20,000 nt of DNA, from contig DATMBG010000003.1 of the NCBI GenBank assembly GCA_035559535.1, positions 49,156-69,155 of the forward strand. The letters are read 5' to 3'. The translations under genes and the position numbers were made by a program. The notes beneath the pieces were generated by a model. That model worked only from the letters and a program-made list of their open reading frames with translations. It made no database searches and was not told the origin of the DNA. Positions 1 to 17,941 of the stretch are shown here, in pieces (position 1 is the first letter of the stretch; each line of letters begins with the position of its first letter). The DNA comes from Candidatus Limnocylindrales bacterium. Its GTDB lineage: Bacteria > Moduliflexota > Moduliflexia > Moduliflexales > JAUQPW01.

Positions 1-3000
1 AAGAATGGAAAAAGGGAAGAAAAAAGTGAAAGCCTACGTAACTCTGAACCTTCCCGTTCTTCTTTACAGGGTCATCTGGGTGCTGTGAGAACCGTCGCCT
101 TTAACCGAGAAGGTACCCTGCTGGCTTCAGGCGGAGAGGATAAACAGATTATCCTCTGGGATGCCCAAAATGGCGTGAAACAGCGGGTATTGGAGGGACA
201 TGGGGGTTCTGTCCTAAGGCTTGCTTTCAGCCCGGATGATGCTTTTCTGGCATCCGGTGGAGACGATCAGATGATCTTCCTGTGGGATCTTCAGACCGGA
301 GAGAAGGTAAAAACCTTATGGAACCAAAGCCAGGATGTTTTGACCCTTGTTTTTAGTCCCGATGGAAAAGTTTTAATATCAGCAGGCTCCGATGGAACCA
401 TTATATTTTGGGATATAGAACAGGGAGAGCCTATCCATACCCTGACAAGACCCGGCAACTGGATGAGTTCCCTGGCCTTGAGTCCAGATGGGGAACTTTT
501 GGCTATAGGGAATCTGGATAACTCGGTAACCCTCTGGAGTATTTCCGATAACCGGGAGGTGAGAACCCTCCGGGGGCCTACAGGTCCCATTTGGAGTCTG
601 GCTTTCAGTCCGGACGGATCCCGGTTAGCAGGCGCCGGTTCAGATTCCATCATCTTCCTCTGGACCGTGAACGAAGGCCAGCTCTTCAAAACCTTAAGAG
701 GTCATACCAGTTGGGTTAATTGCCTGAGTTTTAATCAGGATGGCTCTTTGTTAATATCCGGGAGTTTTGATGGAACTGCTCTGATATGGAGAATAGACAG
801 GCCGGAAACACTACAAAGCAAAGGACTGGAAGCTGGATTCGGTAAGCCGAAAGCCGAACGTGGTGAAACGAAAAAACAGAAACCCCTGACTTCCATCCAA
901 CGTTCTTCCGGTGAAAAAGTAGAGCTCCGGGATCGGTCCTCCGATTCAACCGAAGTCACCCCGGGCTTACAGAATCCGAAAACGGAACCGGAAGAGAAAA
1001 ACAAAGACAAAGTAACCCCATCCCCTAAAGATAAAGCAATTTCCCCTCCATCCCCCTCTAAAGTAGAGGAAGTGGATAAAGAAAAGTCCGATAAGGCGGA
1101 GAAAATCAAAGCAGACCCTGAAAGTATTTTTCAAAAATGGTATGAGCTTGGCCTTGCGCGGATGGCCCAAAGGAGATGGGAGAGTGCTATTGAGAATTTA
1201 AAGCGGGCTTTGGAAGTGAAACAGGTTGAAGAAGTCAAAGAAAAGCTTAAGGAAGCTATCCATCACCGATGGTATGATTTAGGGATGGAGCGGATGAAAC
1301 AAAAACGATGGGAGGATGCCATAGAAAATTTTAACCTTGCCTTAAGTACCCTGGATACCCCGGAGTCTAGAAAAGGACTTCAGGAAGCCAGTTATCATAA
1401 ATGGTACGAAGCCGGCCTTAGTCAGGCAGAACGAGGCTTATGGTCCCAGGCAGGAGCCAGCTTTACCCTGGCCTTGGGCTTTTTAGATACCGAAGAAGCC
1501 CGTACCCATTTGAGGGAGGTCCGATATGCCCAATGGTACCAGACAGGACTCGAGCAGGTTAGCCGGGAACAATGGGCACGAGCCAGGGAGAGTTTTAGGT
1601 TGGCCCTCCAGGAGAAGGATACCGAAGAAGCTCGACGCCAGCTTCAACAGGCCATTATAAATCAAAATTATCAGGAAGGACAGATCCGGCTTCAACAACA
1701 AAACTGGAGCCAGGCCATCGCCTACTTTACCCAGGCCCTATCTGAGTTGAAAAATTCCCAATTCCCAATTCCCGATTCTGCCCTTCAAGTCCAGAAGCTC
1801 CAGGTAAACCTCTATTATGCTCAGGGCTCTCTTGCCATGGATCAGCAGGATTGGACAGAAGCCAGGAAACTCTTTGAGAAAGCCCTGGAAGTAGATCCCC
1901 ATCATTCAGATGCCCGCAGGAAGCTGAACCAGATCGTTTCCTTCATAACCCGGCAGAAACAAGAACAGATTCAGCCGCTACTGCGTTTAGGGGAAGAAAA
2001 GCTAAAAGAATGGGACTGGGATGCTGCAAGAACTTACTTCTTAAAAGCCTGGGAGATAAATCCTGCCGACCTCGAGATCTCGCAAAAGCTCGAAGAGGTA
2101 GCAACAGGCCTTCGATATTGGGAAGAAGATCAGCAACGAGAACGTCAACTCCTACGTGCTCAACAGGAACACCAGATGCGCAGCCTTTTAGAAAAAGAAA
2201 TCCATCGAAAGAATCTGATCCGATATACCGTCATCGGCTTGGGAATCCTGGGAAGTCTTCTCCTTGTCCTTATCTTAAGAAAGAAGAAATCTTTCGATTC
2301 ACTTACCCAGAGTAAAATTCTGGAAGCGGCTTTTTATAAAACTTTGGGTCGATATGCTAAAGCGGCCGAGATTTATCAGAGGATGCTGGAAAAGGATCTT
2401 TCCACGGACTCCCAGCAGACGGATAAGCTTTGGATTTATCCCCTGTTGGCAGACCTTTATATCAAAATGGGAAGACAGGATGAGGAAGCCGCAAAGGTTT
2501 ATGATCGTGCTTTATCTTTAGGCTTTACCCATCCGGAAGCCATAATCCCGGTCTCTTACCGTTACCTGAGAAACTTCAAGATCAGCGAGCGGGCCCTCTG
2601 GGTTTTTGAAAACGCGCTGAAAATAGATCCTTATAATCGGACCCTGTTAAATGCCATCCTCCTTAAAGCCTGGGTCCTTCTCCCGGAAAATCCCGGCCAT
2701 TTCAGATTTTTGTCTCTTTTTCTAAAAGCCTGTGAGAAAACAAATACCCTGGCTATGGGGATTGACTTCCTCCGTGAAATCATCCCCATAGATCCTTCTT
2801 TTACAGATCTTTACTTGAAGTTAGCGGACCTGTTCTGGGCAAAGGGAAAACCTCTTCTTGCCAAGGAGTATCTGACCCTTGCTTATAAGTTCAACAAGAA
2901 CGCCCCATCGACTTCCAAGAAAGGGAATGTACCATCCCATACCTTGGGTGTTATCCTCGATAAACTGGAAGCTATCTATCGCCTTCTAACAACAGAAAAT

Positions 3001-3810
3001 GGTCAGGCTCCGGCTGCCCATTATCAATTGGGATTGTTATATATGAAACAGGGAAAGATCCGTAAAGCCATCCGGGAGTTCAGGAAGATTCACAAAATTC
3101 CCCAATGGAGAGAGCGATCTCGAAATAAGCTCATGGAATGCTGGAATACTTTAGGGGCAACCCGAATACTCCTTTCCTTAAGACCTTCGAACCTTAAGAT
3201 TCGCTTCTATACCTCGATGGGGGCCTGGGACAGGGTCATCCGGGTTTATGAGCGACTTCTGAGCAAGAATCCCAAGAAGGTATGGATTTTTCCCCGGTTA
3301 AGTGCCCTTTATCTTAAAACAGGTCGTTTTCATGCCAGGGCTTTCTGGGTCCATCATAAGGCCCTTTCCCTGGATCCAGAACTGCGAGACCCTGCCTTAC
3401 TTTTGGCTAACTATTACCTTCAGAGAAGAATGACCGGTCCAAGGACTATCTGGGTCTATGAAAGGGCACTGGAATTTCAACCTGATAATGTGGAACTTCT
3501 TAGTCTTTTGCTGGAAGCTTATTTAAAAGCCGATGAAGCAGAATATAGAATACGGGAGGATCATCTAAGCAAGGAGCAGGCAATGGTAACCATCAGTAAG
3601 CGCCTGTATCGCCTGGGCCATCGTAGTAAACGCGTTTATCAGATCTTAAGTCGAAGTTGTCTGAAACATCAACGTATAGATCGAGAAGCCATGCACATCT
3701 ATCAGAATGCCCTTCAATACGAACCTGATAATCAAAGGCTGAGGGACATGATAGACAGGGTTCGATCCTTGCAAGAAGAAACCCTGGCACTCTGGGAAAG
3801 TCATGGATAA
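1..3810 (+). CDS. WD40-repeat + TPR-repeat single-pass membrane protein, 5'-truncated by the window edge
   Basis: Frame is open from base 1 (KNGKREEKSES...LQGHLGAVRTVAF), so the ORF-track GTG at 85 lies inside a WD40 repeat. Six GH...WD-type repeats to ~800, a Lys/Glu/Pro-rich linker, TPR-like repeats, one hydrophobic helix YTVIGLGILGSLLLVLIL followed by RKKK (~2224-2290), then more TPR-like repeats to TAA 3810. Confidence 0.9.
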   Translation, partial: KNGKREEKSESLRNSEPSRSSLQGHLGAVRTVAFNREGTLLASGGEDKQIILWDAQNGVKQRVLEGHGGSVLRLAFSPDDAFLASGGDDQMIFLWDLQTGEKVKTLWNQSQDVLTLVFSPDGKVLISAGSDGTIIFWDIEQGEPIHTLTRPGNWMSSLALSPDGELLAIGNLDNSVTLWSISDNREVRTLRGPTGPIWSLAFSPDGSRLAGAGSDSIIFLWTVNEGQLFKTLRGHTSWVNCLSFNQDGSLLISGSFDGTALIWRIDRPETLQSKGLEAGFGKPKAERGETKKQKPLTSIQRSSGEKVELRDRSSDSTEVTPGLQNPKTEPEEKNKDKVTPSPKDKAISPPSPSKVEEVDKEKSDKAEKIKADPESIFQKWYELGLARMAQRRWESAIENLKRALEVKQVEEVKEKLKEAIHHRWYDLGMERMKQKRWEDAIENFNLALSTLDTPESRKGLQEASYHKWYEAGLSQAERGLWSQAGASFTLALGFLDTEEARTHLREVRYAQWYQTGLEQVSREQWARARESFRLALQEKDTEEARRQLQQAIINQNYQEGQIRLQQQNWSQAIAYFTQALSELKNSQFPIPDSALQVQKLQVNLYYAQGSLAMDQQDWTEARKLFEKALEVDPHHSDARRKLNQIVSFITRQKQEQIQPLLRLGEEKLKEWDWDAARTYFLKAWEINPADLEISQKLEEVATGLRYWEEDQQRERQLLRAQQEHQMRSLLEKEIHRKNLIRYTVIGLGILGSLLLVLILRKKKSFDSLTQSKILEAAFYKTLGRYAKAAEIYQRMLEKDLSTDSQQTDKLWIYPLLADLYIKMGRQDEEAAKVYDRALSLGFTHPEAIIPVSYRYLRNFKISERALWVFENALKIDPYNRTLLNAILLKAWVLLPENPGHFRFLSLFLKACEKTNTLAMGIDFLREIIPIDPSFTDLYLKLADLFWAKGKPLLAKEYLTLAYKFNKNAPSTSKKGNVPSHTLGVILDKLEAIYRLLTTENGQAPAAHYQLGLLYMKQGKIRKAIREFRKIHKIPQWRERSRNKLMECWNTLGATRILLSLRPSNLKIRFYTSMGAWDRVIRVYERLLSKNPKKVWIFPRLSALYLKTGRFHARAFWVHHKALSLDPELRDPALLLANYYLQRRMTGPRTIWVYERALEFQPDNVELLSLLLEAYLKADEAEYRIREDHLSKEQAMVTISKRLYRLGHRSKRVYQILSRSCLKHQRIDREAMHIYQNALQYEPDNQRLRDMIDRVRSLQEETLALWESHG

Positions 3811-3955: not shown

Positions 3956-4173
3956 GGCGCCAGGATAAGCTGAAAAGCCCCGTCAGGGGTGAACTGTGAG
4001 TAGCCCCGGACGCAAGTCGGGGGTTTCAGTCATTCAGAATTTTCTTCAAGCCCCCAGGGAAGCCCCCCTTTCCTCTATATTATATCCTCCCCTTTCCCCC
4101 CATGCGGGGGGAATTGAGGAGCGGCCTGTGAAACAGGTTGCCCCGCCGAGGCTAACCTTCTTATCCTGGCACG
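3956..4173. mobile_element. Candidate MITE with 14-bp terminal inverted repeats flanked by TA
   Basis: TA|GGCGCCAGGATAAG (3956-3969) ... CTTATCCTGGCACG|TA (4160-4173), 12/14 matching. A third copy of the end, TA|CGCCCCAGGATAAG, lies at 12601-12616. The interior has a GTAG-preceded hairpin at 4000-4023. Confidence 0.5.
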
Positions 4174-4221
4174 TATGGGAAAGGGGGTTGAGGCAGGCGA
4201 TGTTTCAAAGTAGAAGCGGTA

Positions 4222-5373
4222 TTATTTCGGGATAATGTGGACTGCTGTTGCTTTAAAGGTAGCCAGGATAGAGCGTCCTTCCTTTAAGTTTAGCGCTTCC
4301 ACGGACTGTTTGGTTACAAACGAGGTTAACGGAAATCCACAATCCAAAACTACTTTATAATATAGGCCCTGGGGTACTACCCTCAGGATACGCCCTTTTA
4401 TCCGGTTTCTGGCGCTGGAAGTGATTTTTTCTTGCCGAAGAAGGGTAGACTCTTTCTCCTCCCTATCTTCGGATCTCCAGGTTCCCGGGTCCCTTTCCAG
4501 GGTCTCCAGGGTAACCTGCTCAGGTCTCAAACAGACCAGAACATCTTCCCCGACCCGAAGGTTGCCGATAGTTTCAATGGTGTGGCCTTCTGAGATCTTC
4601 ACCAGAAAAGTTCCTTCCCTTCCTCCTATGACTTTGCCGGGTAGAACCGTCTCGATACCCACAAAAGCGGCTACTGTTTCATTGATGGGATGATTAAAAA
4701 CCTCATCGGTTCTACCCATCTGGAGGATTTTCCCACGGTCTATAATGGCAACCCGATCTGCCAATCTAAGGACTTCAGAGCGATCATGGGTCACCAGGAT
4801 CGTGGTTGTATGGGTTTCCCGGAGGATATGTTCAAGATCTTCGATAAGAGCTTCTCGGGAAGGAGAATCTAAAGCTGCAAAGGGTTCGTCCAGGAAGAGG
4901 ATTTGGGGATTTAGAACGAAGGCGCGTGCCAGGCTGGTTCGTTGTGCTTCACCTCCTGACAGGGTTCTGGCCGAGCGATTCGCCAAATGGGAAATACCCA
5001 AACGTTCCAGCCACATAAAAACCTTTTCGTAGATCTCATGCCGGGAGACTCTCCTTAGTTTCAAGCCGGAAGCAACATTCTCGAAGACGGTGGTATCAAA
5101 TAAAAGCGGCTCTTGAAAAACGACCGCCAGAGATCGCCGTAATGGGAGGAGATTCTTTTTATAATCAACCGGCAAACCTTTAAAGAAGACGGTTCCTTCA
5201 TGGGGGGATTGGAGGAAGGCCAGAACCTGAAGCAGGGTCGTTTTCCCGGCTCCATTAGGTCCGAGAAAAGCCAGGGTTTCTCCCATCTCTACCTGAAGTT
5301 TAGGAACATCCAGAATCGTTTGTTGATCTCCCAGAACTTGTAGATTTCTGACTTCTAGAATAACTTCTTTCAC
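4222..5373 (-). CDS. tupC: Tungstate/molybdate-type ABC transporter ATP-binding protein with two C-terminal TOBE domains
   Basis: Walker A GPNGAGKTT, signature LSGGEAQR, Walker B ILFLDEP, H-loop VTHD, TOBE motifs LRPEQV and SSARNRIKG...FKATAVH. Start GTG 5373 is preferred; TTG 5424 is the alternative. Confidence 0.88.
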   Translation of the reverse strand: MKEVILEVRNLQVLGDQQTILDVPKLQVEMGETLAFLGPNGAGKTTLLQVLAFLQSPHEGTVFFKGLPVDYKKNLLPLRRSLAVVFQEPLLFDTTVFENVASGLKLRRVSRHEIYEKVFMWLERLGISHLANRSARTLSGGEAQRTSLARAFVLNPQILFLDEPFAALDSPSREALIEDLEHILRETHTTTILVTHDRSEVLRLADRVAIIDRGKILQMGRTDEVFNHPINETVAAFVGIETVLPGKVIGGREGTFLVKISEGHTIETIGNLRVGEDVLVCLRPEQVTLETLERDPGTWRSEDREEKESTLLRQEKITSSARNRIKGRILRVVPQGLYYKVVLDCGFPLTSFVTKQSVEALNLKEGRSILATFKATAVHIIPK

Positions 5374-5390
5374 GGAGGAGTCCAGAGTCA

Positions 5391-5421
5391 GAAGCCCGAA
5401 GTTCTCCGAACTTCGGGCTTC
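5391..5421. repeat. Perfect 14-bp inverted repeat between tupB and tupC
   Basis: GAAGCCCGAAGTTC-TCC-GAACTTCGGGCTTC. Confidence 0.85.
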
Positions 5422-5435
5422 CAACGCTTAGGGGC

Positions 5436-6134
5436 TTATTTGGGTCTGTCTCGCTGTTGGAGGAATGTCAGGGTCAGGTTTACACTAAAGGTTAAGAGGA
5501 AAAGCAGAATACTCAAGGCAATAGCCATACCGAATTCGCCTTTACTGGTCTCCAATACCGTAGCCGTTGTCAGTACCCGGGTTTGTCCCTTGATATTTCC
5601 TCCTACCATCATCGAAGCGCCAACCTCTGAGATAACCCCTCCAAAACCGGCCATAACGGCTGCCAGTAGGGGGAGCCTGGCTTCCTTTAAGAGAAGCCAG
5701 ACCATCTGGCAACGGGAGGCCCCGAGGGCAAGGATTTGTAAACGTAGTTTGGGGTTAAGATGCTGGATGGCCGCTATGGTTAATCCGGCCATAATGGGGG
5801 TTGCAAGGATAGTCTGGGCTATCACCATTGCCGTAGGGGTATAGAGCAGGTGAAAGAATCCTAAGGGTCCATTTCGCCAAAGTAAAATTGTAACAAACAA
5901 TCCTACCACCACGGGGGGGAGACCCATACCGGTATTAATCAAGGTAATCCATAAGCGGCGACCGGGGAAGCGACTTAAAGCCAGAAAAGTACCTATAGAA
6001 ACTCCCAGAATCAAACTACCTATTGTTGCCAATCCAGAAACCCGAAGGGAAAGCCATGTAATCTCCCATACTTCTGGGTCCCGGTGTATTAAAAGCTCGA
6101 AGGCTTTCCGAATTCCCTCCCAAATTAAATCCAC
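5436..6134 (-). CDS. tupB: Tungstate ABC transporter permease
   Basis: TupB-like motifs LINTGMGLPPVVVGL and ISEVGASMMVGGNIKGQTRVLTTA, several TM helices. Start GTG 6134 (MDLIWEG); the ORF-track extension runs through repeat DNA. Confidence 0.9.
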   Translation of the reverse strand: MDLIWEGIRKAFELLIHRDPEVWEITWLSLRVSGLATIGSLILGVSIGTFLALSRFPGRRLWITLINTGMGLPPVVVGLFVTILLWRNGPLGFFHLLYTPTAMVIAQTILATPIMAGLTIAAIQHLNPKLRLQILALGASRCQMVWLLLKEARLPLLAAVMAGFGGVISEVGASMMVGGNIKGQTRVLTTATVLETSKGEFGMAIALSILLFLLTFSVNLTLTFLQQRDRPK

Positions 6135-6200
6135 ACGCCTACACCCCCATCCCTCCACACGCCCACCCCTCTATACCCCCACCCTTCCATACTCTACTCC
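6131..6200 (+). repeat. Degenerate 8-mer tandem repeat filling the intergenic spacer
   Basis: CCACACGC CTACACCC CCATCCCT CCACACGC CCACCCCT CTATACCC CCACCCTT CCATACTC. Confidence 0.75.
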
Positions 6201-7373
6201 CTAACGAACCTCCATGAAGCTAAAAAGCTCCTTACCCAGACGTCTTTCAACAGAATTAGACGGAACTTCCAGAGTTTTAATTTCAAAAAACGGGGAAAAC
6301 AAGGCGCGGATTTCTTCGGAATCGGTGGTATAAGGGGGGCCTCCCGGCTGCCCATGGGCATAAAAGAGGGCAATAAATCGTCCACCAGGTCGCAAAAGAT
6401 TTCTTACAATTTGAACATATTCTCCTCGCCGGGCCGGATCAATGGCACAAAAGCAGGTGTGCTCTAAGACATAGTCAAATTGGTGCGCATACTTTGGAAT
6501 TAAATCAAACAGATCCTGTTGAACCAGTTTGAGGGATACTCCGGCTTTTTTTGCTATTTGTGCAGCTCCCTGAATGGCCGACGGAGCAAAATCAAACCCA
6601 ACGACCTGAAAGCCTTTTTGAGCAAAAAAAATCGCATCATGTCCACGTCCGCAACCCAATACGGCCAGAGAGCCTGGGGGAGGCGCAGCAGAAGATTCTA
6701 AAAAAGATGCCAAGGGGGGAGCGACCTGTCCAAGATCCCAAAGAGCTTCATTTTGTTGATATAAATTCTCCCAGAAACTGACCGTATTAGCCCGGTGTTT
6801 CCAGAACCCATTCGCCCAGGTCGTCATCTGATCATAAAGGTAAGGAGATACTTCTTTAGCCAAAGGGAGGTACTTCTCGCACGTTTCACGATAATATCTC
6901 AGTTGCTGTTCCTGGGAAGGCGAAAGATGCAAATACCGAATATGGTCAAGTCGATCTGACAATTTAATGAGTTGGATTTCTCGAGGGGCTTGCCAGATCT
7001 TCTCCAGGTAGGCCCGGTCTCTCTCCTCATTGGAGGAATACCGGTTGATAGCTTCTTTGGTCAATATTTTCACCATGCCTGCAATGGGTTCTCCAAAAGC
7101 TTCCTCCAAAGCTGCGTAATCGACCTGGCAATCTTCTAAAACATCCTGGAGTAGAGCCGCACAGAGCACGTTGGAATCCGTTATTTTCAACTCATCGAAG
7201 AGAATACAGACTACTCGTAAGAGATGAACCCTGTAATCTATTCCTTCATCCCGGTGTTGTCCTCTATGATTTTCCTCGGCAAAATGATAAGCTTTTTCTA
7301 GGAGAGCCAGATTAACTTCTGGATTTTTGGACAGAATTCTTTCTTTAAATTCTTGAAAATGGTTTTGAGTCAT
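6201..7373 (-). CDS. Fusion: RelA/SpoT-type HD (Mesh1/SAH-like) domain + TPMT/thiol-halide family SAM-dependent methyltransferase
   Basis: N-half: KAYHFAEENHRGQHRDEG.DY..H, AALLQDVLED, FGEPIA.MV..LTK, LIKLSDRLD. C-half: FWENLY...WDLG..APPL, motif I VLGCGRGHDA, GFDFAPSAI, EHTCFCAIDP.RR..Y, GGPPY. Start ATG 7373 or TTG 7385. Confidence 0.88.
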   Translation of the reverse strand: MTQNHFQEFKERILSKNPEVNLALLEKAYHFAEENHRGQHRDEGIDYRVHLLRVVCILFDELKITDSNVLCAALLQDVLEDCQVDYAALEEAFGEPIAGMVKILTKEAINRYSSNEERDRAYLEKIWQAPREIQLIKLSDRLDHIRYLHLSPSQEQQLRYYRETCEKYLPLAKEVSPYLYDQMTTWANGFWKHRANTVSFWENLYQQNEALWDLGQVAPPLASFLESSAAPPPGSLAVLGCGRGHDAIFFAQKGFQVVGFDFAPSAIQGAAQIAKKAGVSLKLVQQDLFDLIPKYAHQFDYVLEHTCFCAIDPARRGEYVQIVRNLLRPGGRFIALFYAHGQPGGPPYTTDSEEIRALFSPFFEIKTLEVPSNSVERRLGKELFSFMEVR

Positions 7374-7390
7374 CCTATCGGTCAAAGGAA

Positions 7391-7627
7391 TCAGGCCCGC
7401 TCGAAATAATAATCCCGTCTCTTACAATTAGAACAACGATAGGGACTAATTCGTATAATTGGAAAGATATAGGTATCTATAAAATTTCGTGGCTTTGCTT
7501 TTATCAAGGTATCTGTTTTACAATATCGGCAGGTAATGGTCTTTCGTCCATTTTCATTCTTTTTCTCTGGGGTTACAGGGGAGATATCTACCTGGGAATC
7601 TGGTTTCTTAGACTTGGCAGTTTTCAT
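7391..7627 (-). CDS. Small protein with two CxxC pairs (putative zinc ribbon)
   Basis: Strong RBS AAAGGAGGT 5 nt before ATG; CRYC...PYRCSNC; ends 17 nt before the ATG of the HD-methyltransferase gene. Confidence 0.75.
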   Translation of the reverse strand: MKTAKSKKPDSQVDISPVTPEKKNENGRKTITCRYCKTDTLIKAKPRNFIDTYIFPIIRISPYRCSNCKRRDYYFERA

Positions 7628-7813
7628 TGTTTACCTCCTTTTCTTTCTATTAAAGTTGGCAAACAGGACTTTGAAGTAAAAAAATAGGGTAAGGAAAATC
7701 TATCCTCTTTTTTTATTTTAATCTCCCCAAAAGGGGCCTTGTCAATAAAAATATTTCTGTTAAAGCAAAAGAAGACCTGCTTTTCCCTTTTCGAGGGTTG
7801 GTCGCACCTTCGA

Positions 7814-8017
7814 TTATCGGTCCCTGTAGTTTTTGTCCCTGTCTTCCAGTATATGTTTTCGGTGATCATTGGGCCCGCCGTTGTTCGGTTTCAGGTATTT
7901 TAATTTTCGTATATTTTTTGTAATCGCTTCCCGCTTTTTCACTTCCTTCTTGAACTTCATGAGATCTCTTTCCAGGGCTTCGATTTCCCTCTTGATTTTA
8001 TCCAGAAAGTTCTCCAT
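7814..8017 (-). CDS. Small charged coiled-coil protein, hypothetical
   Basis: RBS AAGGAGG upstream of ATG; heptad-like FLDKIKREIEALERDLMKFKKEV; sigma54-type motif ~70 nt upstream. Confidence 0.6.
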   Translation of the reverse strand: MENFLDKIKREIEALERDLMKFKKEVKKREAITKNIRKLKYLKPNNGGPNDHRKHILEDRDKNYRDR

Positions 8018-8085
8018 ACCTTACCCTCCTTGAAGTCAGAGCTTTATCCATAGGTAATCCTTGAGAGTCCCTGATTCCTATAGGG

Positions 8086-8100
8086 GCAATAAGTATACCA
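8086..8100 (-). promoter_or_regulatory. Sigma54 -24/-12 promoter motif with an upstream IHF-like site
   Basis: Minus strand TGGTAT-ACTTA-TTGC (GG-N10-GC). TATTAAAGGGTTA at 8130-8142 is one mismatch from the IHF consensus WATCAANNNNTTR. Confidence 0.6.
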
Positions 8101-8498
8101 GTCGAGGGATGAAGCTATAAGTTCTTTAATATTAAAGGGTTATAGATATTCTGTAACGGATTTATTTAGAGAAGAGTATGGTCTTTTCTGGATAAAGTGG
8201 GATTTTCAGACCCTAGTCGATTAGAATCGCTTTATGATCGTCCAGGTGGATCAATTTAGGCAAGAAGTCCCTGTCTAATTACAAGATAAATGTAGAGTTC
8301 ACAAAAGTGACCAAATTCTTATTGACAAAACAAAAATCAGCACCCAATATAGAATTGCTGGTCAGACGTAGCCTCTATGGAAGATGTGGATTCTTGCAAG
8401 CCGGGCTTGTCCACTCCTATTCGAGTTGCTCGAACAGGGGTTGACAGATTCAAAAGCCTAATGCCTAACTAATTATCAACCAAAAAGGAGGTATGATT

Positions 8499-9701
8499 AT
8501 GGATGTACGCGTTAAATCGATTCTCTCCCTTGTTTTAGTTGGTCTTTTAGTTACGTCTGTTTCTTTGGCCGAAGAAAAGGAAAAACCGGCTCCCCCCCCC
8601 CCTTACCCTGTTAAGGGACAGGTTATTCAAACGTTGAAAGCCTTCGACAATCCTGAAGGGGCTATTTTTAGTGCCGATGGAAAGTTTGTATTTATCTCTA
8701 ATGCGGCTGAGTTGGGGATGAAGGAAAAAGGATTTCATTGGACTGAAAAAGCCGGTTACATCAGTAAGCTGGAAGTTCAACCGGATGGAACCTTAAAGAT
8801 GGTGAAGGATAAACTGATCACAGGTCTCACGGCCCCCTTGGGAATGGCTGTCCTTCCCGTGGCTACCAAGAAATTCCCCAAAGGCACCATCTTTTTGTGT
8901 GCTGGAGCCGCTCCCATAGCCGAAGCAAACGGTACCGAAATTAAAGACGCAAAACGCATGGATCCCAAACTGGTTGCGTTTGATACTGAGGGAAAAGTCC
9001 TGGGCGAAATTAAAATGGGAATGAATTCTGCTTTTGCCAAGGCCAATGGAGGATCTCCGGCTACCCTTCCCAATGCAGCCGGTTTTGATAAAGATGGTAA
9101 CTTATATGTTGCAGATACCGGGATTGGCGGCGCCAGTTTTGATCCTCCTGTGAAAACCAATGGAGGGGTCTATATGATTCCCCATAGCGCCCTGGATGAT
9201 CTGGCAGATGGCAAAGAAGCTTCCGTTAGCTTTATCGCCATGCCCGAAGGTGGACCAGATGGTGTTGAAGTGGCTCCAGATGGGAGCATCCATACCAATA
9301 CCGTTGGTGTGGCTGCCGGTATGAAAGATCCAGCCCAGGGAGGTATGTACAAGCTCTCTGTGGAAGATTTCAAGAGTGGTAAGCTCCCGGCACCCTTCGT
9401 TACCGGTTTAGGAGCCCTGGATGGTCTGGATTTCGCCGGTAATGCCCGACTGGATACAGAGATCGTAAATACCAACTCGGTTATTGTAACCCTTCTGCCG
9501 GATGGAAAACCGATGATGTTGACCTATGATCAGCCAGATAAGAAATTAGCCGGACCGGCAGATATTGCGGTTCGTAAAATGGCCGATGGAGGCTACCTCC
9601 TGGTTATTCCCGAACTCTCTGCACTGGCGCCCAATACGAATCAAGATCCCGTTACCGTCGTAAAACTTCCGGCAGATTTTGATAAAGGCGGAAAGAAATA
9701 A
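8499..9701 (+). CDS. Secreted beta-propeller protein (SMP-30/gluconolactonase-like)
   Basis: Signal peptide ending VSLA|EE; blade motifs NPEG.IFS.DG..VFISN, APLGMAV, PNAAGFDKDGNLYVADTG, GPDGVEVAPDG, LDGLDF, GPADIAV. AGGAGGT spacing favours ATG 8499 over 8493. Confidence 0.8.
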   Translation: MDVRVKSILSLVLVGLLVTSVSLAEEKEKPAPPPPYPVKGQVIQTLKAFDNPEGAIFSADGKFVFISNAAELGMKEKGFHWTEKAGYISKLEVQPDGTLKMVKDKLITGLTAPLGMAVLPVATKKFPKGTIFLCAGAAPIAEANGTEIKDAKRMDPKLVAFDTEGKVLGEIKMGMNSAFAKANGGSPATLPNAAGFDKDGNLYVADTGIGGASFDPPVKTNGGVYMIPHSALDDLADGKEASVSFIAMPEGGPDGVEVAPDGSIHTNTVGVAAGMKDPAQGGMYKLSVEDFKSGKLPAPFVTGLGALDGLDFAGNARLDTEIVNTNSVIVTLLPDGKPMMLTYDQPDKKLAGPADIAVRKMADGGYLLVIPELSALAPNTNQDPVTVVKLPADFDKGGKK

Positions 9702-14480: not shown

Positions 14481-14600
14481 AAAATAACCTCCCAAAAGGC
14501 AAGAATTGAATAGGGTACTTAACTACGGCTTTAGAGGCTTTTGATAGCTTTAAACTCGAAAGAATATCGGTTCTTCAAGTTGTATCAAATTGGAATTGAG

Positions 14601-15839
14601 ATGAAACTCCTCCCTGACACCATAAAATACTTATTATATTTGCTACTTTTCCTTATTTATTGTGAAGGAGTGTATGCAGATGATATCGTTATTGGGGCCT
14701 CGGCCGCATTTCGGGGACCTTCAAGGGGGCTCGGCATTGAACTCTACAGAGGATCCATGGCCTATATCCAACATATCAATCAAGGAGGTGGGATAAATGG
14801 TCGAAAGATACTTATGAAGGCTTATAATGATGGTTATAATCCCATTCCTGCTATTGAAAACACCATCAAGCTGGTTGAGGAAGATCATGTTCTCCTCCTC
14901 TTTGATTATGTAGGAACTCCCACAGTGACCCGGGTCCTGCCATTACTCAAAAGATATCGGAATGAGTTTGTCTACCTTTTCTTTCCCTTTACAGGAGCTC
15001 AACCCCATAGACAGCCTCCCTATGATGAATTTGTCTTTAATCTTAGAGCATCTTATCACCAGGAGACCGAGGGGCTGGTGGATAATTTTGTAAAGGCAGG
15101 CAGAAAGAGGATTGCTATATTCTATCAAGTGGATGCCTATGGACGAAGTGGATGGGATGGGGTGAAAAAGGCTTTAGCAAAATTCGGTCTCAAGATTGCA
15201 GGCGAAGCTACTTATCGAAGAGGGGCCAAATACTCTGAGGATTTCAAACAGCAGGTTGAAATTCTTAGAAAGGTAAATCCGGATGCGATAATTTCGGTTG
15301 GAGCCTATGCTGCCTGCGCGGGATTTATTAGAGATGCCCGGGATGCCGGTTGGGATGTTCCCATTGCCAATGTTTCCTTTGTAGGAAGTGAGAATCTGCT
15401 TAATTTACTTCTTGAGACGGGTAAGGCAACCGGACGGGATTACACCGTTAACCTGATCAATTCCCAGGTTGTACCCTCCTATGAAGAGACCTCTTTACCT
15501 GCAGTTAAGGAATACAGAGAGTTAATGGATAGATATAACCCTATGCCTCCTAAGGACCTTATGGCGGAGGAATACAAACCCTTGAGGTATAGTTTTGTCA
15601 GTTTTGAAGGGTTTCTCAATGCAAAACTCCTTGTTGAAATTCTTAAAAGGATGGGCAGTAAACCTGAAAGGGCGCGCATCAAAGAGACCGTTGAAAGTAT
15701 AGAGAATCTGGATATAGGGATCAATACCCCGGTATCCTTCGGACCCCACAAGCATCAGGGGTTGGATTTAGTCTATTATACAACGGTCAGGAATGGCTTA
15801 TTCGTTCCTATTATAGATTGGCCCGGGAGGGAAAAATGA
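14601..15839 (+). CDS. Periplasmic solute-binding protein, type 1 (LivJ/branched-chain amino acid-like)
   Basis: Signal peptide ending VYA|DD; IVIGASAAFRGP...LG, INQGGGINGRKI, DGYNP, YVGTPT, FPFTGA, VFNLRASY..E, YQVDAYG. ATG 14601 preferred over TTG 14541. Confidence 0.9.
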   Translation: MKLLPDTIKYLLYLLLFLIYCEGVYADDIVIGASAAFRGPSRGLGIELYRGSMAYIQHINQGGGINGRKILMKAYNDGYNPIPAIENTIKLVEEDHVLLLFDYVGTPTVTRVLPLLKRYRNEFVYLFFPFTGAQPHRQPPYDEFVFNLRASYHQETEGLVDNFVKAGRKRIAIFYQVDAYGRSGWDGVKKALAKFGLKIAGEATYRRGAKYSEDFKQQVEILRKVNPDAIISVGAYAACAGFIRDARDAGWDVPIANVSFVGSENLLNLLLETGKATGRDYTVNLINSQVVPSYEETSLPAVKEYRELMDRYNPMPPKDLMAEEYKPLRYSFVSFEGFLNAKLLVEILKRMGSKPERARIKETVESIENLDIGINTPVSFGPHKHQGLDLVYYTTVRNGLFVPIIDWPGREK

Positions 15840-17941
15840 GAACATCCAGGTTATTTAAAAAGATCCTTGCCATTGTAGTCCTTCTCTTTGGTATTACCGC
15901 CATTACAACGGCTGTTTTCTCAGGCTGGAATCTCCAAAAACACCTTATGGAAGAATATAAAAGCAAGGGTACTGCCATAGCCAACAGCATTGCCAGTTCA
16001 AGTGTAGAAATACTTCTTAATCGAGACGCATCGACCCTTCAGGCCGTTATCGATCAGTTTATGGAAATTCAAGGGGTTTCCTATGTTTATATTGTTGATG
16101 AACAGGGAGAAATCATAACCCATACCTTTGTCCCCAGCATCCCGGAAGAGGTATTTACTGTTAAGGGTGAAAAAGACAAAACCACCATCAAAGATTTGCA
16201 TATTAAAGGGATGGGGGATTTTACCCATATCTCTTCTCCCATATTAGCCGGTGTGGCCGGTTATGTCCATGTAGGAATGGACAAGGGGATTATATTGGCT
16301 CAAATGAAGTCCACCATGGTGAGTCAATTATATTTGATTGCCATAATCTTTCTAATCAGCGCAATGGGGGCCTATTTACTTGCAAACAAAGTTTCCCGAC
16401 CCTTGAGTAAACTTTCGGCATACGCCAGGGAACTGGCCCCTATCGAAAGTACCCAACGGGGAGATGAGATTGCCATCCTGACTACCTCTATGAAGGCCTT
16501 AATGGATTATCTTCAAGAAATGGCGGCAATGGCAAATCGTATTTCCCAGGGTGATCTGAGCCTTCACATTGAACCCAAATCCAGGCAGGACATTCTAGGG
16601 CATGCCTTTGCCCAAATGACCCGATATATCAGAGAAATGGCAGAGGTTGCCAATAAACTGGCTGGTGGGGATCTTACCCCAGATGTACATCCTAGGTCGG
16701 AAAAAGATGTCTTGGGCATGGCTTTTAAAAACATGATTATCCAATTGAGAGCCCTGGTTTCTCAAATTCGGAGCCAGGCCAATCAAATCGCCCAAATCAG
16801 TATAGAGATCCTGACGCGATCGGATGAAGACTTGAAGACGGTAGAGAACGTTACATCTTCAGCCGAGGAGACTTCCTCCGCCATGTCTGAAATGGGAGCC
16901 AGTGTCGAAGAAGTGGCGGGGAATACCCAAACTCTCTTTAGGTCCACCGAGGAGATTTCCTCTTCCATTGAACAGATGTTTAACTCGATCCGGCAAGTTA
17001 CAGAAAGCTCAAGGAGGCTTTCAGAAATATCTGAAATGACCGCTGCGGCAATGAACCAAATGGTCTTTTCCATAGAGACGATAGCTAAAAACGCTGAAAA
17101 CTCCAGGCAATTCTATCATGAAACAACGGAAATTACGCTGCAGGGACAGACTTCTATGCAACAAGTAGTCAGGAGTATGGATAAGATCCGTGAAGCGGTC
17201 TCTTCGGCAACATATACGATCCAAAGCCTGGAAAATAAATCACAACAGATCGGCTCTATTTTGGATGTGATCGACAATATTGCGGACCAGACTGCGCTGC
17301 TTGCGTTAAATGCCTCAATTTTAGCCGCTCAGGCCGGTGAACATGGAAGGGGATTTGCTGTGGTTGCCGACGAAATTAAAGACTTGGCAAACCGGGTAGC
17401 TCTCTCGACCCAGGAGATTACCCAGATTATCGAAGCAGTGCAGAGGCAATCAGCCGATGCGGTTAAGGTGATCCAGGAGGGTAATAAGGAGGTCGATGAG
17501 GGAGTAAAACGGGTCAATTTGGCCGGTCAGGCTTTGGATCGGATTACCGTCAGCGCGCAGAATTCCTTATCGGCTGCTACTGAGATTGTACAGGCCATTC
17601 AGGAACAAAAAACATCGACGCAGAAAATTATGGAATCCGTAAAGAAGGTTACGGAGCGGATAACCGAAATTAATGAAGCAACCCAGGAGCAGGAGAAGGG
17701 ATCTTCACAGATTTTGCATGCGATAGGAGAAGTCAGAGGGTTAACCGAACAGGTTAAAAGGGCGACTATGGAGCAGAGTAAGGGGGCAAATCAGGTCAGT
17801 TTAGCCATGGAAGAGGTAAAAAGTTTAATCTCTCAAAGTAGTAGCAATGCCCGTCAGTCTACCCAGGCGGCTGCAGAGTTATCTGCTCAAGCCGAAACGC
17901 TCCGTAAACTGATGGATCGGTTTAAACTGACGGGAAATTAA
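15836..17941 (+). CDS. Methyl-accepting chemotaxis protein with a small periplasmic domain and tandem HAMP domains
   Basis: Two TM helices; HAMP segments (DEIAIL, DILGHAF, DVLGMAF); hairpin tip IADQTALLALNASILAAQAGEHGRGFAVVADEIKDLA; ATGA overlap with the SBP stop; RBS GGGAGG. Confidence 0.93.
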   Translation: MRTSRLFKKILAIVVLLFGITAITTAVFSGWNLQKHLMEEYKSKGTAIANSIASSSVEILLNRDASTLQAVIDQFMEIQGVSYVYIVDEQGEIITHTFVPSIPEEVFTVKGEKDKTTIKDLHIKGMGDFTHISSPILAGVAGYVHVGMDKGIILAQMKSTMVSQLYLIAIIFLISAMGAYLLANKVSRPLSKLSAYARELAPIESTQRGDEIAILTTSMKALMDYLQEMAAMANRISQGDLSLHIEPKSRQDILGHAFAQMTRYIREMAEVANKLAGGDLTPDVHPRSEKDVLGMAFKNMIIQLRALVSQIRSQANQIAQISIEILTRSDEDLKTVENVTSSAEETSSAMSEMGASVEEVAGNTQTLFRSTEEISSSIEQMFNSIRQVTESSRRLSEISEMTAAAMNQMVFSIETIAKNAENSRQFYHETTEITLQGQTSMQQVVRSMDKIREAVSSATYTIQSLENKSQQIGSILDVIDNIADQTALLALNASILAAQAGEHGRGFAVVADEIKDLANRVALSTQEITQIIEAVQRQSADAVKVIQEGNKEVDEGVKRVNLAGQALDRITVSAQNSLSAATEIVQAIQEQKTSTQKIMESVKKVTERITEINEATQEQEKGSSQILHAIGEVRGLTEQVKRATMEQSKGANQVSLAMEEVKSLISQSSSNARQSTQAAAELSAQAETLRKLMDRFKLTGN

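Follow-up and report, generated by a model that had tools for sequence, protein, structure and literature searches.

A rare fusion of a RelA/SpoT-type HD domain to a TPMT-superfamily methyltransferase, with hydrolase-motif changes private to one genome

We analysed a 20,000-nucleotide stretch of a metagenome-assembled genome of a Candidatus Limnocylindrales bacterium (GenBank assembly GCA_035559535.1, contig DATMBG010000003.1, positions 49,156 to 69,155 of the forward strand; hereafter the window). On the minus strand it encodes a 390-residue protein in which an HD domain of the RelA/SpoT homologue (RSH) type is fused to a methyltransferase of the TPMT superfamily. An earlier note, made from the nucleotide sequence of the window, had described a single unbroken open reading frame (ORF) uniting a domain like Mesh1 or a small alarmone hydrolase (SAH) with a TPMT-family methyltransferase. 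This description stands: Pfam returns both domains, and orthologues align without gaps. The sequence details recorded at the time, LLQDVLED (CAG at 7148–7146), YRVHL and DRLDH, all hold as well. The gene, its domains and the altered codons are as follows.

6201..7373, minus strand: coding sequence of the HD_4 and TPMT-superfamily fusion, 390 residues, from the ORF list and translation; stop codon at 6201–6203
6855..7292, minus strand: RSH-type HD hydrolase domain, Pfam HD_4 (PF13328), residues 28–173 (E = 4.1e-19; 69.3 bits, cut-off 27.2)
6246..6779, minus strand: putative anion (halide/thiol)-type S-adenosylmethionine (SAM) methyltransferase domain, Pfam TPMT (PF05724), residues 199–376 (E = 1.1e-32; 114 bits, cut-off 26)
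7146..7148, minus strand: codon 76, CAG (Gln), where the HD motif has His; aligned to His77 of Bacillus subtilis Rel (LHDVvED)
7221..7223, minus strand: codon 51, CTC (Leu), where YxxHP has Pro; aligned to Pro54 of B. subtilis Rel
6942..6944, minus strand: codon 144, CAT (His), where DRLDN has Asn; aligned to the Asn of DRLHN in B. subtilis Rel; shared with the same-genus genome G001 (locus L001)

The reading frame starts with the ATG at 7373, a position common to every orthologue in the alignment; an in-frame TTG lies upstream at 7385, and the orthologue starts give it no backing. NCBIfam models returned only partial spoT_relA and thiopurine methyltransferase matches, all far under their equivalog cut-offs.

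The HD half has the sequence of an HD_4 family member and the helical fold of Mesh1 and Rel. Its best solved relatives by sequence are Rel hydrolase domains (E = 2.8e-21), followed by Mesh1 (1.8e-15), and it is more distant from the characterised bacterial SAHs (6z3n, 6yvc, 7smg). The closest relatives in the databases are stand-alone proteins of ~200 residues (best E = 5e-51 with the family profile), which share the family-specific tail LHLSP..EK..RY..ET..YLPLA. SAHs are described, in the excerpted text of PMC3153485 and PMC7229694, as small single-domain proteins; with 390 residues and a fused methyltransferase, the window protein falls outside that definition.

The assignment of the second half to the TPMT/thiol-halide methyltransferases, also made in the earlier note, is supported by Pfam, by the nearest solved structures and by the presence of all subfamily columns. 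The best solved relatives by sequence are 9h0d (E = 2.1e-24), 9h0g (3.8e-24), Arabidopsis thaliana HOL1 (3lcc, 1.2e-22) and 8ajp (2.4e-20), with mammalian TPMT far off (human 2bzg, 1.9e-4). In a 27-member subfamily alignment, all 12 invariant and all 18 near-invariant columns are kept, and the retained subfamily residues comprise the SAM-binding GxGxG, W..W, EHTCFCAI, GGPP and R. Scores fall well short of the bacterial Tpm equivalogs TIGR03840 and NF009732 (66.3 bits against 223.2 and 58.7 against 213, respectively). Family PF05724 is divided, in the part of PMC9303522 that treats it, into enzymes acting on organic thiols and anion methyltransferases for halide, hydrosulfide and thiocyanate. 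On these sequence comparisons, the methyltransferase half falls with the anion ('HOL/HMT') branch of the superfamily.

The architecture, which the earlier note did not recognise, is indeed very rare. Of 5.8 billion proteins searched by a word index, 305 matched; among the 120 listed, 5 are full-length fusions and 115 contain the methyltransferase half only. The five (P0002–P0006) are all 390 residues long, carry both Pfam families and are 91, 82, 73, 72 and 71% identical to the window protein, respectively. A scan of GTDB genomes added a sixth orthologue, P0122, from a same-genus genome (89% identity). We also searched 1.84 billion representatives clustered at 50% identity with a HMMER profile of six fusions. 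One representative, P0006 (820 bits), matches both domains, that is, a single 50%-identity cluster, and the second-best match, at 259 bits, is a methyltransferase alone. The best 150 profile matches listed comprise 1 fusion, 130 methyltransferase-only and 19 HD-only proteins (~170–260 residues); this listing reaches down to ~144 bits, and any fusion with a lower total score would lie outside it. A search with the HD half returned the same 5 fusions and no other HD_4 and TPMT protein among the 120 matches listed (proteins of 214–683 residues).

Among the 41 genomes searched, only that of the window and its same-genus sister have a full-length match, while seven genomes of the same order match only through a long RSH or through separate methyltransferases. 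The closest named PRPP synthetases are 66–71% identical and belong to metagenome-assembled genomes of Thermodesulfobacteriota, 'Deltaproteobacteria' and Nitrospirota. Full-length loci account for 1 of 4 relatives in the metagenome scan and 1 of 3 in the genome scan. The seven orthologues align without a gap at 390 residues each. Because gap-free orthologues exist at 71–91% identity, the fusion is inherited and no assembly artefact, and it is restricted to one small uncultured lineage. It is thus not unique to this assembly, a possibility that the earlier note had raised against its own reading. The word 'methyltransferase' is absent from the main text of the RSH surveys PMC3153485 and PMC7229694, whose supplementary tables could list the architecture, and a full-text literature search for an alarmone hydrolase or HD domain combined with a methyltransferase gave nothing relevant. 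We regard the HD_4 and TPMT architecture, built from two well-known families, as undescribed in the literature searched.

We next consider the hydrolase motifs, the positions of which were mapped by HMMER alignment to B. subtilis Rel (PDB 6yxa/8acu). The motif set that binds metal and catalyses comprises, in Rel numbering, H53, H77–D78, E81–D82, D144 and N148, with the positions taken from the alignment. The His of the HD motif is a Mn2+ ligand in Rel and Mesh1. In fusion numbering, the set corresponds to His50, His76–Asp77, Glu80–Asp81, Asp140 and Asn144, and the window copy departs from it at two places, Gln76 and His144, with Leu51 as a further change. We compared the sites across 26 sequences, namely the 7 fusions and the 19 closest stand-alone HD proteins. 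Position 76 is His in 25 of the 26 and position 51 is Pro in 25 of the 26, the window copy being the only exception in both cases. Position 144 is Asn in 24, with the window copy and same-genus P0122 as exceptions; it is therefore kept in 5/6 other fusions and in all 19 stand-alone relatives. His50, Asp77, Glu80, Asp140 and Arg141 are invariant in all 26, the window copy included, and the window copy also retains Asp81. Outside the window copy, the motifs are changed in P0122 (N144H), in P0004 (D81N) and in the stand-alone protein P0260 (D81H). The complete canonical set is found in 4/6 other fusions, and the seven orthologues thus form a series of four with intact motifs, two with one altered residue and the window copy with three.

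Both HD and HP are kept in 6/6 other fusions and 19/19 of the closest stand-alone hydrolases, so the architecture is not built around a dead site. The QD motif is a private mutation of the window genome and not a conserved design feature. A conserved loss of the RelA type is not what we find: Gln76 and Leu51 occur in 1/7 fusions and His144 in 2/7.

These data bear on what the window copy can do. The H77A/D78A variant of B. subtilis Rel is used, in the excerpted text of bioRxiv 10.1101/688689, as a hydrolase-inactive allele that raises alarmone levels. Because of that phenotype, the hydrolase of the window copy is probably inactive or severely impaired. The 744-residue long Rel of the same genome has intact HP, LLHDVVED and DRLHN motifs; (p)ppGpp hydrolysis would therefore not be lost from the cell, which does not depend on the fusion copy for it.

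Selection was measured by the Nei–Gojobori method between the window and L001. The HD half has a non-synonymous divergence (dN) of 0.079 and a synonymous divergence (dS) of 0.343 (ratio, omega, 0.23), and the methyltransferase half a dN of 0.027 and a dS of 0.230 (omega 0.116). The counts of non-synonymous to synonymous changes are 34:34 and 12:28, respectively (Fisher p = 0.047). Both halves are under purifying selection, and the HD half is about twice as relaxed. Since strong purifying selection acts on the methyltransferase half, which is intact, that half would be the working part in the window genome.

The same contrast appears in the residues private to each of the seven orthologues, counted as HD half / methyltransferase half.

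Window protein: 13 / 3
P0122: 13 / 3
P0002: 6 / 0
P0003: 12 / 12
P0004: 21 / 17
P0005: 31 / 20
P0006: 21 / 23

Pooled, the private residues of the genus-level trio number 32 in the HD half and 6 in the methyltransferase half, compared with 85 and 72 for the four deeper orthologues (Fisher p = 0.0007, which overstates the significance because the lineages are related and not independent). The per-site ratio of HD to methyltransferase differences is 2.8–4.0 within the trio and 1.0–1.4 among the four deeper orthologues. In a maximum-likelihood tree, the window protein pairs with P0122. The two have six derived states in common, N144H among them, and the alternative pairings have 2 and 1.

From these sequences, the most economical history would have four steps. 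The fusion would have arisen once, with its hydrolase domain intact. HD evolution would then have sped up at the base of the genus-level clade, N144H would have followed in the ancestor of the two GTDB species, and H76Q and P51L would have been added on the window genome's own branch.

The fusion gene stands in a run of co-directional genes, listed here in the order of transcription.

7391..7627, minus strand: zinc-ribbon-like ORF, 78 residues, with two CxxC pairs; ends 17 nucleotides before the fusion ATG
6201..7373, minus strand: the fusion gene
5436..6158, minus strand: permease of an ATP-binding cassette (ABC) importer, TupB-like, Pfam BPD_transp_1; longest ORF, the true start perhaps a few codons downstream; 42 nucleotides after the fusion gene
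4222..5424, minus strand: ABC ATPase with a C-terminal TOBE domain, WtpC-like, Pfam ABC_tran and TOBE; longest ORF; WtpC 296.6 bits, below the cut-off of 440

The permease scores 272 bits against the broad subfamily NF038017 (cut-off 100) and 174.9 bits against TupB, below the cut-off of 320. The neighbours thus belong to the broad NF038017 subfamily only and fall short of the TupABC/WtpABC tungstate transporter equivalogs. The order zinc-ribbon ORF, fusion, permease, ATPase is the same in the window, L001 and L014. Locus L014 is 72% identical to the window and has different genes on both flanks, and the preservation of the four-gene order despite those flanks argues for a functional unit. There is no terminator-like site between the fusion gene and the permease gene. 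A promoter and terminator scan of 4000–8500 gave counts at or under the shuffled expectation. No riboswitch was found ahead of the cassette, where the only match at E up to 1 in 7350–8520 is a chance microRNA, and the window has neither tRNA genes nor Rfam matches at gathering score.

The zinc-ribbon ORF has no Pfam or NCBIfam match. Counterparts lie directly upstream of the fusion in L001 (7747–7983) and L014 (6641–6871), and the one in G001 is 95% identical. It is the best-conserved gene of the cassette, with 1 difference between the window and L001 in the last 144 nucleotides; the fusion gene beside it is only 90.9% identical to that of L001, and the synonymous divergence of the zinc-ribbon ORF is far lower. 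In the protein atlas, its relatives are proteins of 72–80 residues in unnamed clusters, commonest in Acidobacteriota. Upstream of the cassette lies an 860-nucleotide 'intergenic' stretch that is 93% identical between the two species and contains a 67-residue Lys/Glu-rich ORF (7814–8017, minus strand) with a strong AAGGAGG ribosome-binding site, conserved in L001.

The window permease is the sole NF038017 member of its genome, in which PBP_like_2 and SBP_bac_11 genes are found on other contigs. Two PBP_like_2 genes (G000, contig C32, 77010–80467), with no NF038017-type permease match there, could be the missing partners.

Further genes of the window were noted in passing. Positions 1–3810 (plus strand) encode the end of a very large WD40 and TPR repeat protein (>1269 residues in the window), convergent with the ABC ATPase gene; a 1715-residue ORF occupies the same place in L001. 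Positions 8493–9701 (plus strand) encode a 402-residue protein with a signal-peptide-like N terminus and no Pfam match (ScyD/ScyE sub-threshold at 22.5 bits, cut-off 80), found at the same place in L001 and not in L014. Positions 14541–17941 (plus strand) encode a Peripla_BP_6 protein and, across an overlapping stop and start, a methyl-accepting chemotaxis protein with sCache_3_2 and HAMP domains; the two may form a chemoreceptor pair assisted by a ligand-binding protein.

A model of the fusion protein was predicted with AlphaFold from a 55-row alignment. Mean predicted local distance difference test (pLDDT) is 94.8 and the predicted template modelling score (pTM) is 0.85, with no segment below 50 and no disordered linker. 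The helical domain is modelled at about residues 4–190, and pLDDT exceeds 90 over the HD domain. This model replaced a first one from a 6-row alignment, in which the methyltransferase half was poor (pLDDT 74, pTM 0.56). Foldseek aligns the HD half to Drosophila Mesh1 (3nqw; template modelling (TM) score normalised to the target 0.83, root mean square deviation 2.5, 178 columns) and the methyltransferase half to halide methyltransferases (target-normalised TM score 0.75–0.88). No solved chain covering both halves was found by Foldseek, the best query-normalised TM score being 0.46. The high pTM suggests that the two halves pack rigidly; only seven paired sequences stand behind the model, and such packing is no evidence of regulation.

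Taken together, these comparisons lead us to favour an ancestrally bifunctional protein, part SAH-like hydrolase and part anion methyltransferase, which has probably just lost its hydrolase site in the window genome and kept a functional methyltransferase. With hydrolase motifs intact in the family as a whole, the ancestral protein was most likely bifunctional, and would have combined a 3'-pyrophosphohydrolase for (p)ppGpp or (p)ppApp-type nucleotides with an anion/thiol methyltransferase.

Several points weigh against this interpretation. Glutamine can coordinate some metals, and residual or altered hydrolase activity is possible. The HD half is still selected at omega 0.23, which fits a retained non-catalytic role equally well as a recent loss. 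Between the window and L014, dN is 0.24 for the HD half and 0.13 for the methyltransferase half; the HD half is thus faster family-wide, so that a faster rate alone is no proof of decay. The clade of window protein and P0122, by which N144H is dated, has a bootstrap of only 62%. As for the cassette, its conservation refers to 3 loci of one lineage, with the loci of P0002, P0003, P0004 and P0006 outside the comparison, and the ABC genes are absent at 3 loci of stand-alone methyltransferases (L002, L003 and L006). There is no binding-protein gene nearby, and contig C3 has neither a PBP_like_2 nor an SBP_bac_11 gene close to the window. Finally, the sequence was compared with contigs and not with raw reads, to which minority alleles at codon 76 are invisible.

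The earlier note had read the QD motif as the mark of a dedicated pseudo-hydrolase, in which the HD domain would bind a nucleotide without cleaving it and allosterically gate the methyltransferase, as in the degenerate HD domain of RelA. The domain is indeed full length, free of indels and selected at omega 0.23 in spite of its lost catalytic residues, and the model is of a rigidly packed two-domain body (pTM 0.85). Moreover, a motif residue is altered in 3/7 fusions (window, P0122 and P0004) against 1/19 stand-alone proteins (Fisher p = 0.047, among related sequences), and the HD half evolves 3–4 times faster than the methyltransferase half in the genus-level trio, compared with 1.0–1.4 times among the deeper orthologues. 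One of the three altered fusions, P0004, is however a single sequence from a 5-kb contig. A conserved QD is also contradicted by the finding that the note itself had named as fatal to it: the homologues keep HD and the Gln is private to the window genome, with HD and HP retained in every other fusion and the whole canonical set in four of those six. We therefore consider a dedicated pseudo-hydrolase unlikely.

A related idea, which we rate as improbable, is that the HD domain is only now being converted to a non-catalytic nucleotide sensor. Catalysis would have become dispensable after N144H in the genus ancestor and the domain would have been kept, rigidly packed on the methyltransferase. It would then link the methylation and volatilisation of an anion, imported by the co-encoded TupB/WtpC-like importer, to the signal of the stringent response or to another 3'-phosphorylated nucleotide. 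If true, this would catch a RelA-like pseudo-hydrolase regulator in the course of its origin. It would also give a first physiological handle on bacterial HOL-type methyltransferases, for which the fusions to HD_4, NUDIX and CoaE hint at a nucleotide link.

Equally improbable in our estimate is a protein that is still bifunctional, in which Gln76, together with His50, Asp77 and Asp140, would hold the metal, perhaps with a changed metal or substrate preference. Retention of His50, Glu80, Asp81, Asp77, Asp140 and Arg141 speaks for such an enzyme, as does the omega of 0.23, which indicates continued selection on the HD domain. Yet the other 25 family members, of 26, all have His at the equivalent position, and Pro51 and Asn144 have changed as well. 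The Rel H77A/D78A allele is hydrolase-inactive in the part of bioRxiv 10.1101/688689 concerned, which counts against activity with the restriction that it is a double Ala mutant and not His to Gln alone.

That three changes fall in the catalytic motifs of a single domain, within a short branch, might also indicate that the whole gene is decaying to a functionless pseudogene in the window genome. We consider this very improbable, given an open frame of the same length as in all orthologues, a methyltransferase omega of 0.116 with all 30 conserved columns intact, and intact cassette neighbours.

Least credible of all is that the Gln codon, or the entire fusion, is a sequencing, assembly or binning artefact: the source genome is metagenome-assembled (58 contigs, 4% contamination) and only contigs were compared with the sequence, but a second assembler's contig from run X1 is identical across all 1200 bases, the fusion junction is found in 6 other sequences from other samples, and three separate single-base changes strike three motifs, which disfavours random consensus error. 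Run X1 contains every sampled word of the window, and its independent Logan assembly has the locus on one 8600-base contig (word depth 27.5) with 0 differences over 6201–7400; X1 is probably the source sample of the genome, so that the contig adds a second assembly but no second sample. An identical 451-base piece (6272–6722), confined to the methyltransferase half, occurs in run X2 of another study, and runs X3 and X5 contain related strains that are 5–10% different. No RNA run was listed as containing the stretch. Gln76 is thus not an obvious assembly error.

Returning to the bifunctional ancestor with a recently lost hydrolase site, we note that its wider significance is limited: the clade is tiny, QD is confined to one genome, and there is no sign of a new mechanism. 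Little is known of what bacterial halide/thiol-type methyltransferases do in nature. The conserved covalent link within an oxyanion-type ABC importer cassette leads to a testable hypothesis, namely that alarmone or nucleotide turnover is coupled to anion methylation in at least one lineage. Any such coupling, be it of one half to the other or of the protein to the ABC importer, we infer from gene and domain arrangement, as we infer the substrates from family membership. The seven orthologues would offer a small natural series for the contribution of the HD half.

Both families occur in other fusions. Relatives of the methyltransferase part (window 6201–6803), P0140 and P0190 among them, are fused in some cases to NUDIX (P0128) or to CoaE, dephospho-CoA kinase (P0070, P0075), and very often carry an unassigned N-terminal segment of 115–150 residues. 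HD_4 relatives are fused to NUDIX (P0286, P0290 and P0294), GalT (P0270), GTPase (P0302) and PfkB (P0351) domains. Coenzyme A was considered as a thiol substrate on the strength of the NUDIX and CoaE fusions and was dropped; by eye, the NUDIX domain of P0128 resembles the ADP-ribose pyrophosphatase type. The recurrent nucleotide-handling partners are a lead, and nothing more, to the physiological role of bacterial anion methyltransferases.

Among known systems, the NUDIX and CoaE fusions join one of the same two families to a nucleotide-metabolising domain; none is an HD_4 and TPMT protein, and some may be gene-calling artefacts. Nucleotide-metabolism partners of small RSHs have already been noted, in the excerpted text of PMC3153485. 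Mesh1 (3nqw, 3nr1, 5vxa) and the hydrolase domain of long Rel (6yxa, 8acu, 1vj7) have the HD_4 family and the all-helical fold in common with the window protein, the orthologues of which share with them the motif set R..Y..HP, LLHD..ED and KL.DRLDN. Compared with SAHs, the window protein is fused to a methyltransferase and has replaced the HD His, the HP Pro and the DRLDN Asn. HOL1/HTMT (3lcc) and the fungal and bacterial halide/thiol methyltransferases (9h0d, 9h04, 8ajp, 6mro) are close in sequence (E = 2e-24 to 8e-18), and relative to these anion methyltransferases the window protein carries an extra N-terminal HD domain of 190 residues. Because the sequence-similarity network of PMC9303522 takes in proteins of 150–330 residues only, according to its excerpted text, the fusion lies outside it. 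A different comparison is with the degenerate HD domain of Escherichia coli-type RelA. That domain has lost its catalytic residues, is retained in a larger protein and is regulatory. The RelA loss is a fixed feature of a large clade, whereas that of the window protein is confined to a single genome, apart from a portion shared within one genus.

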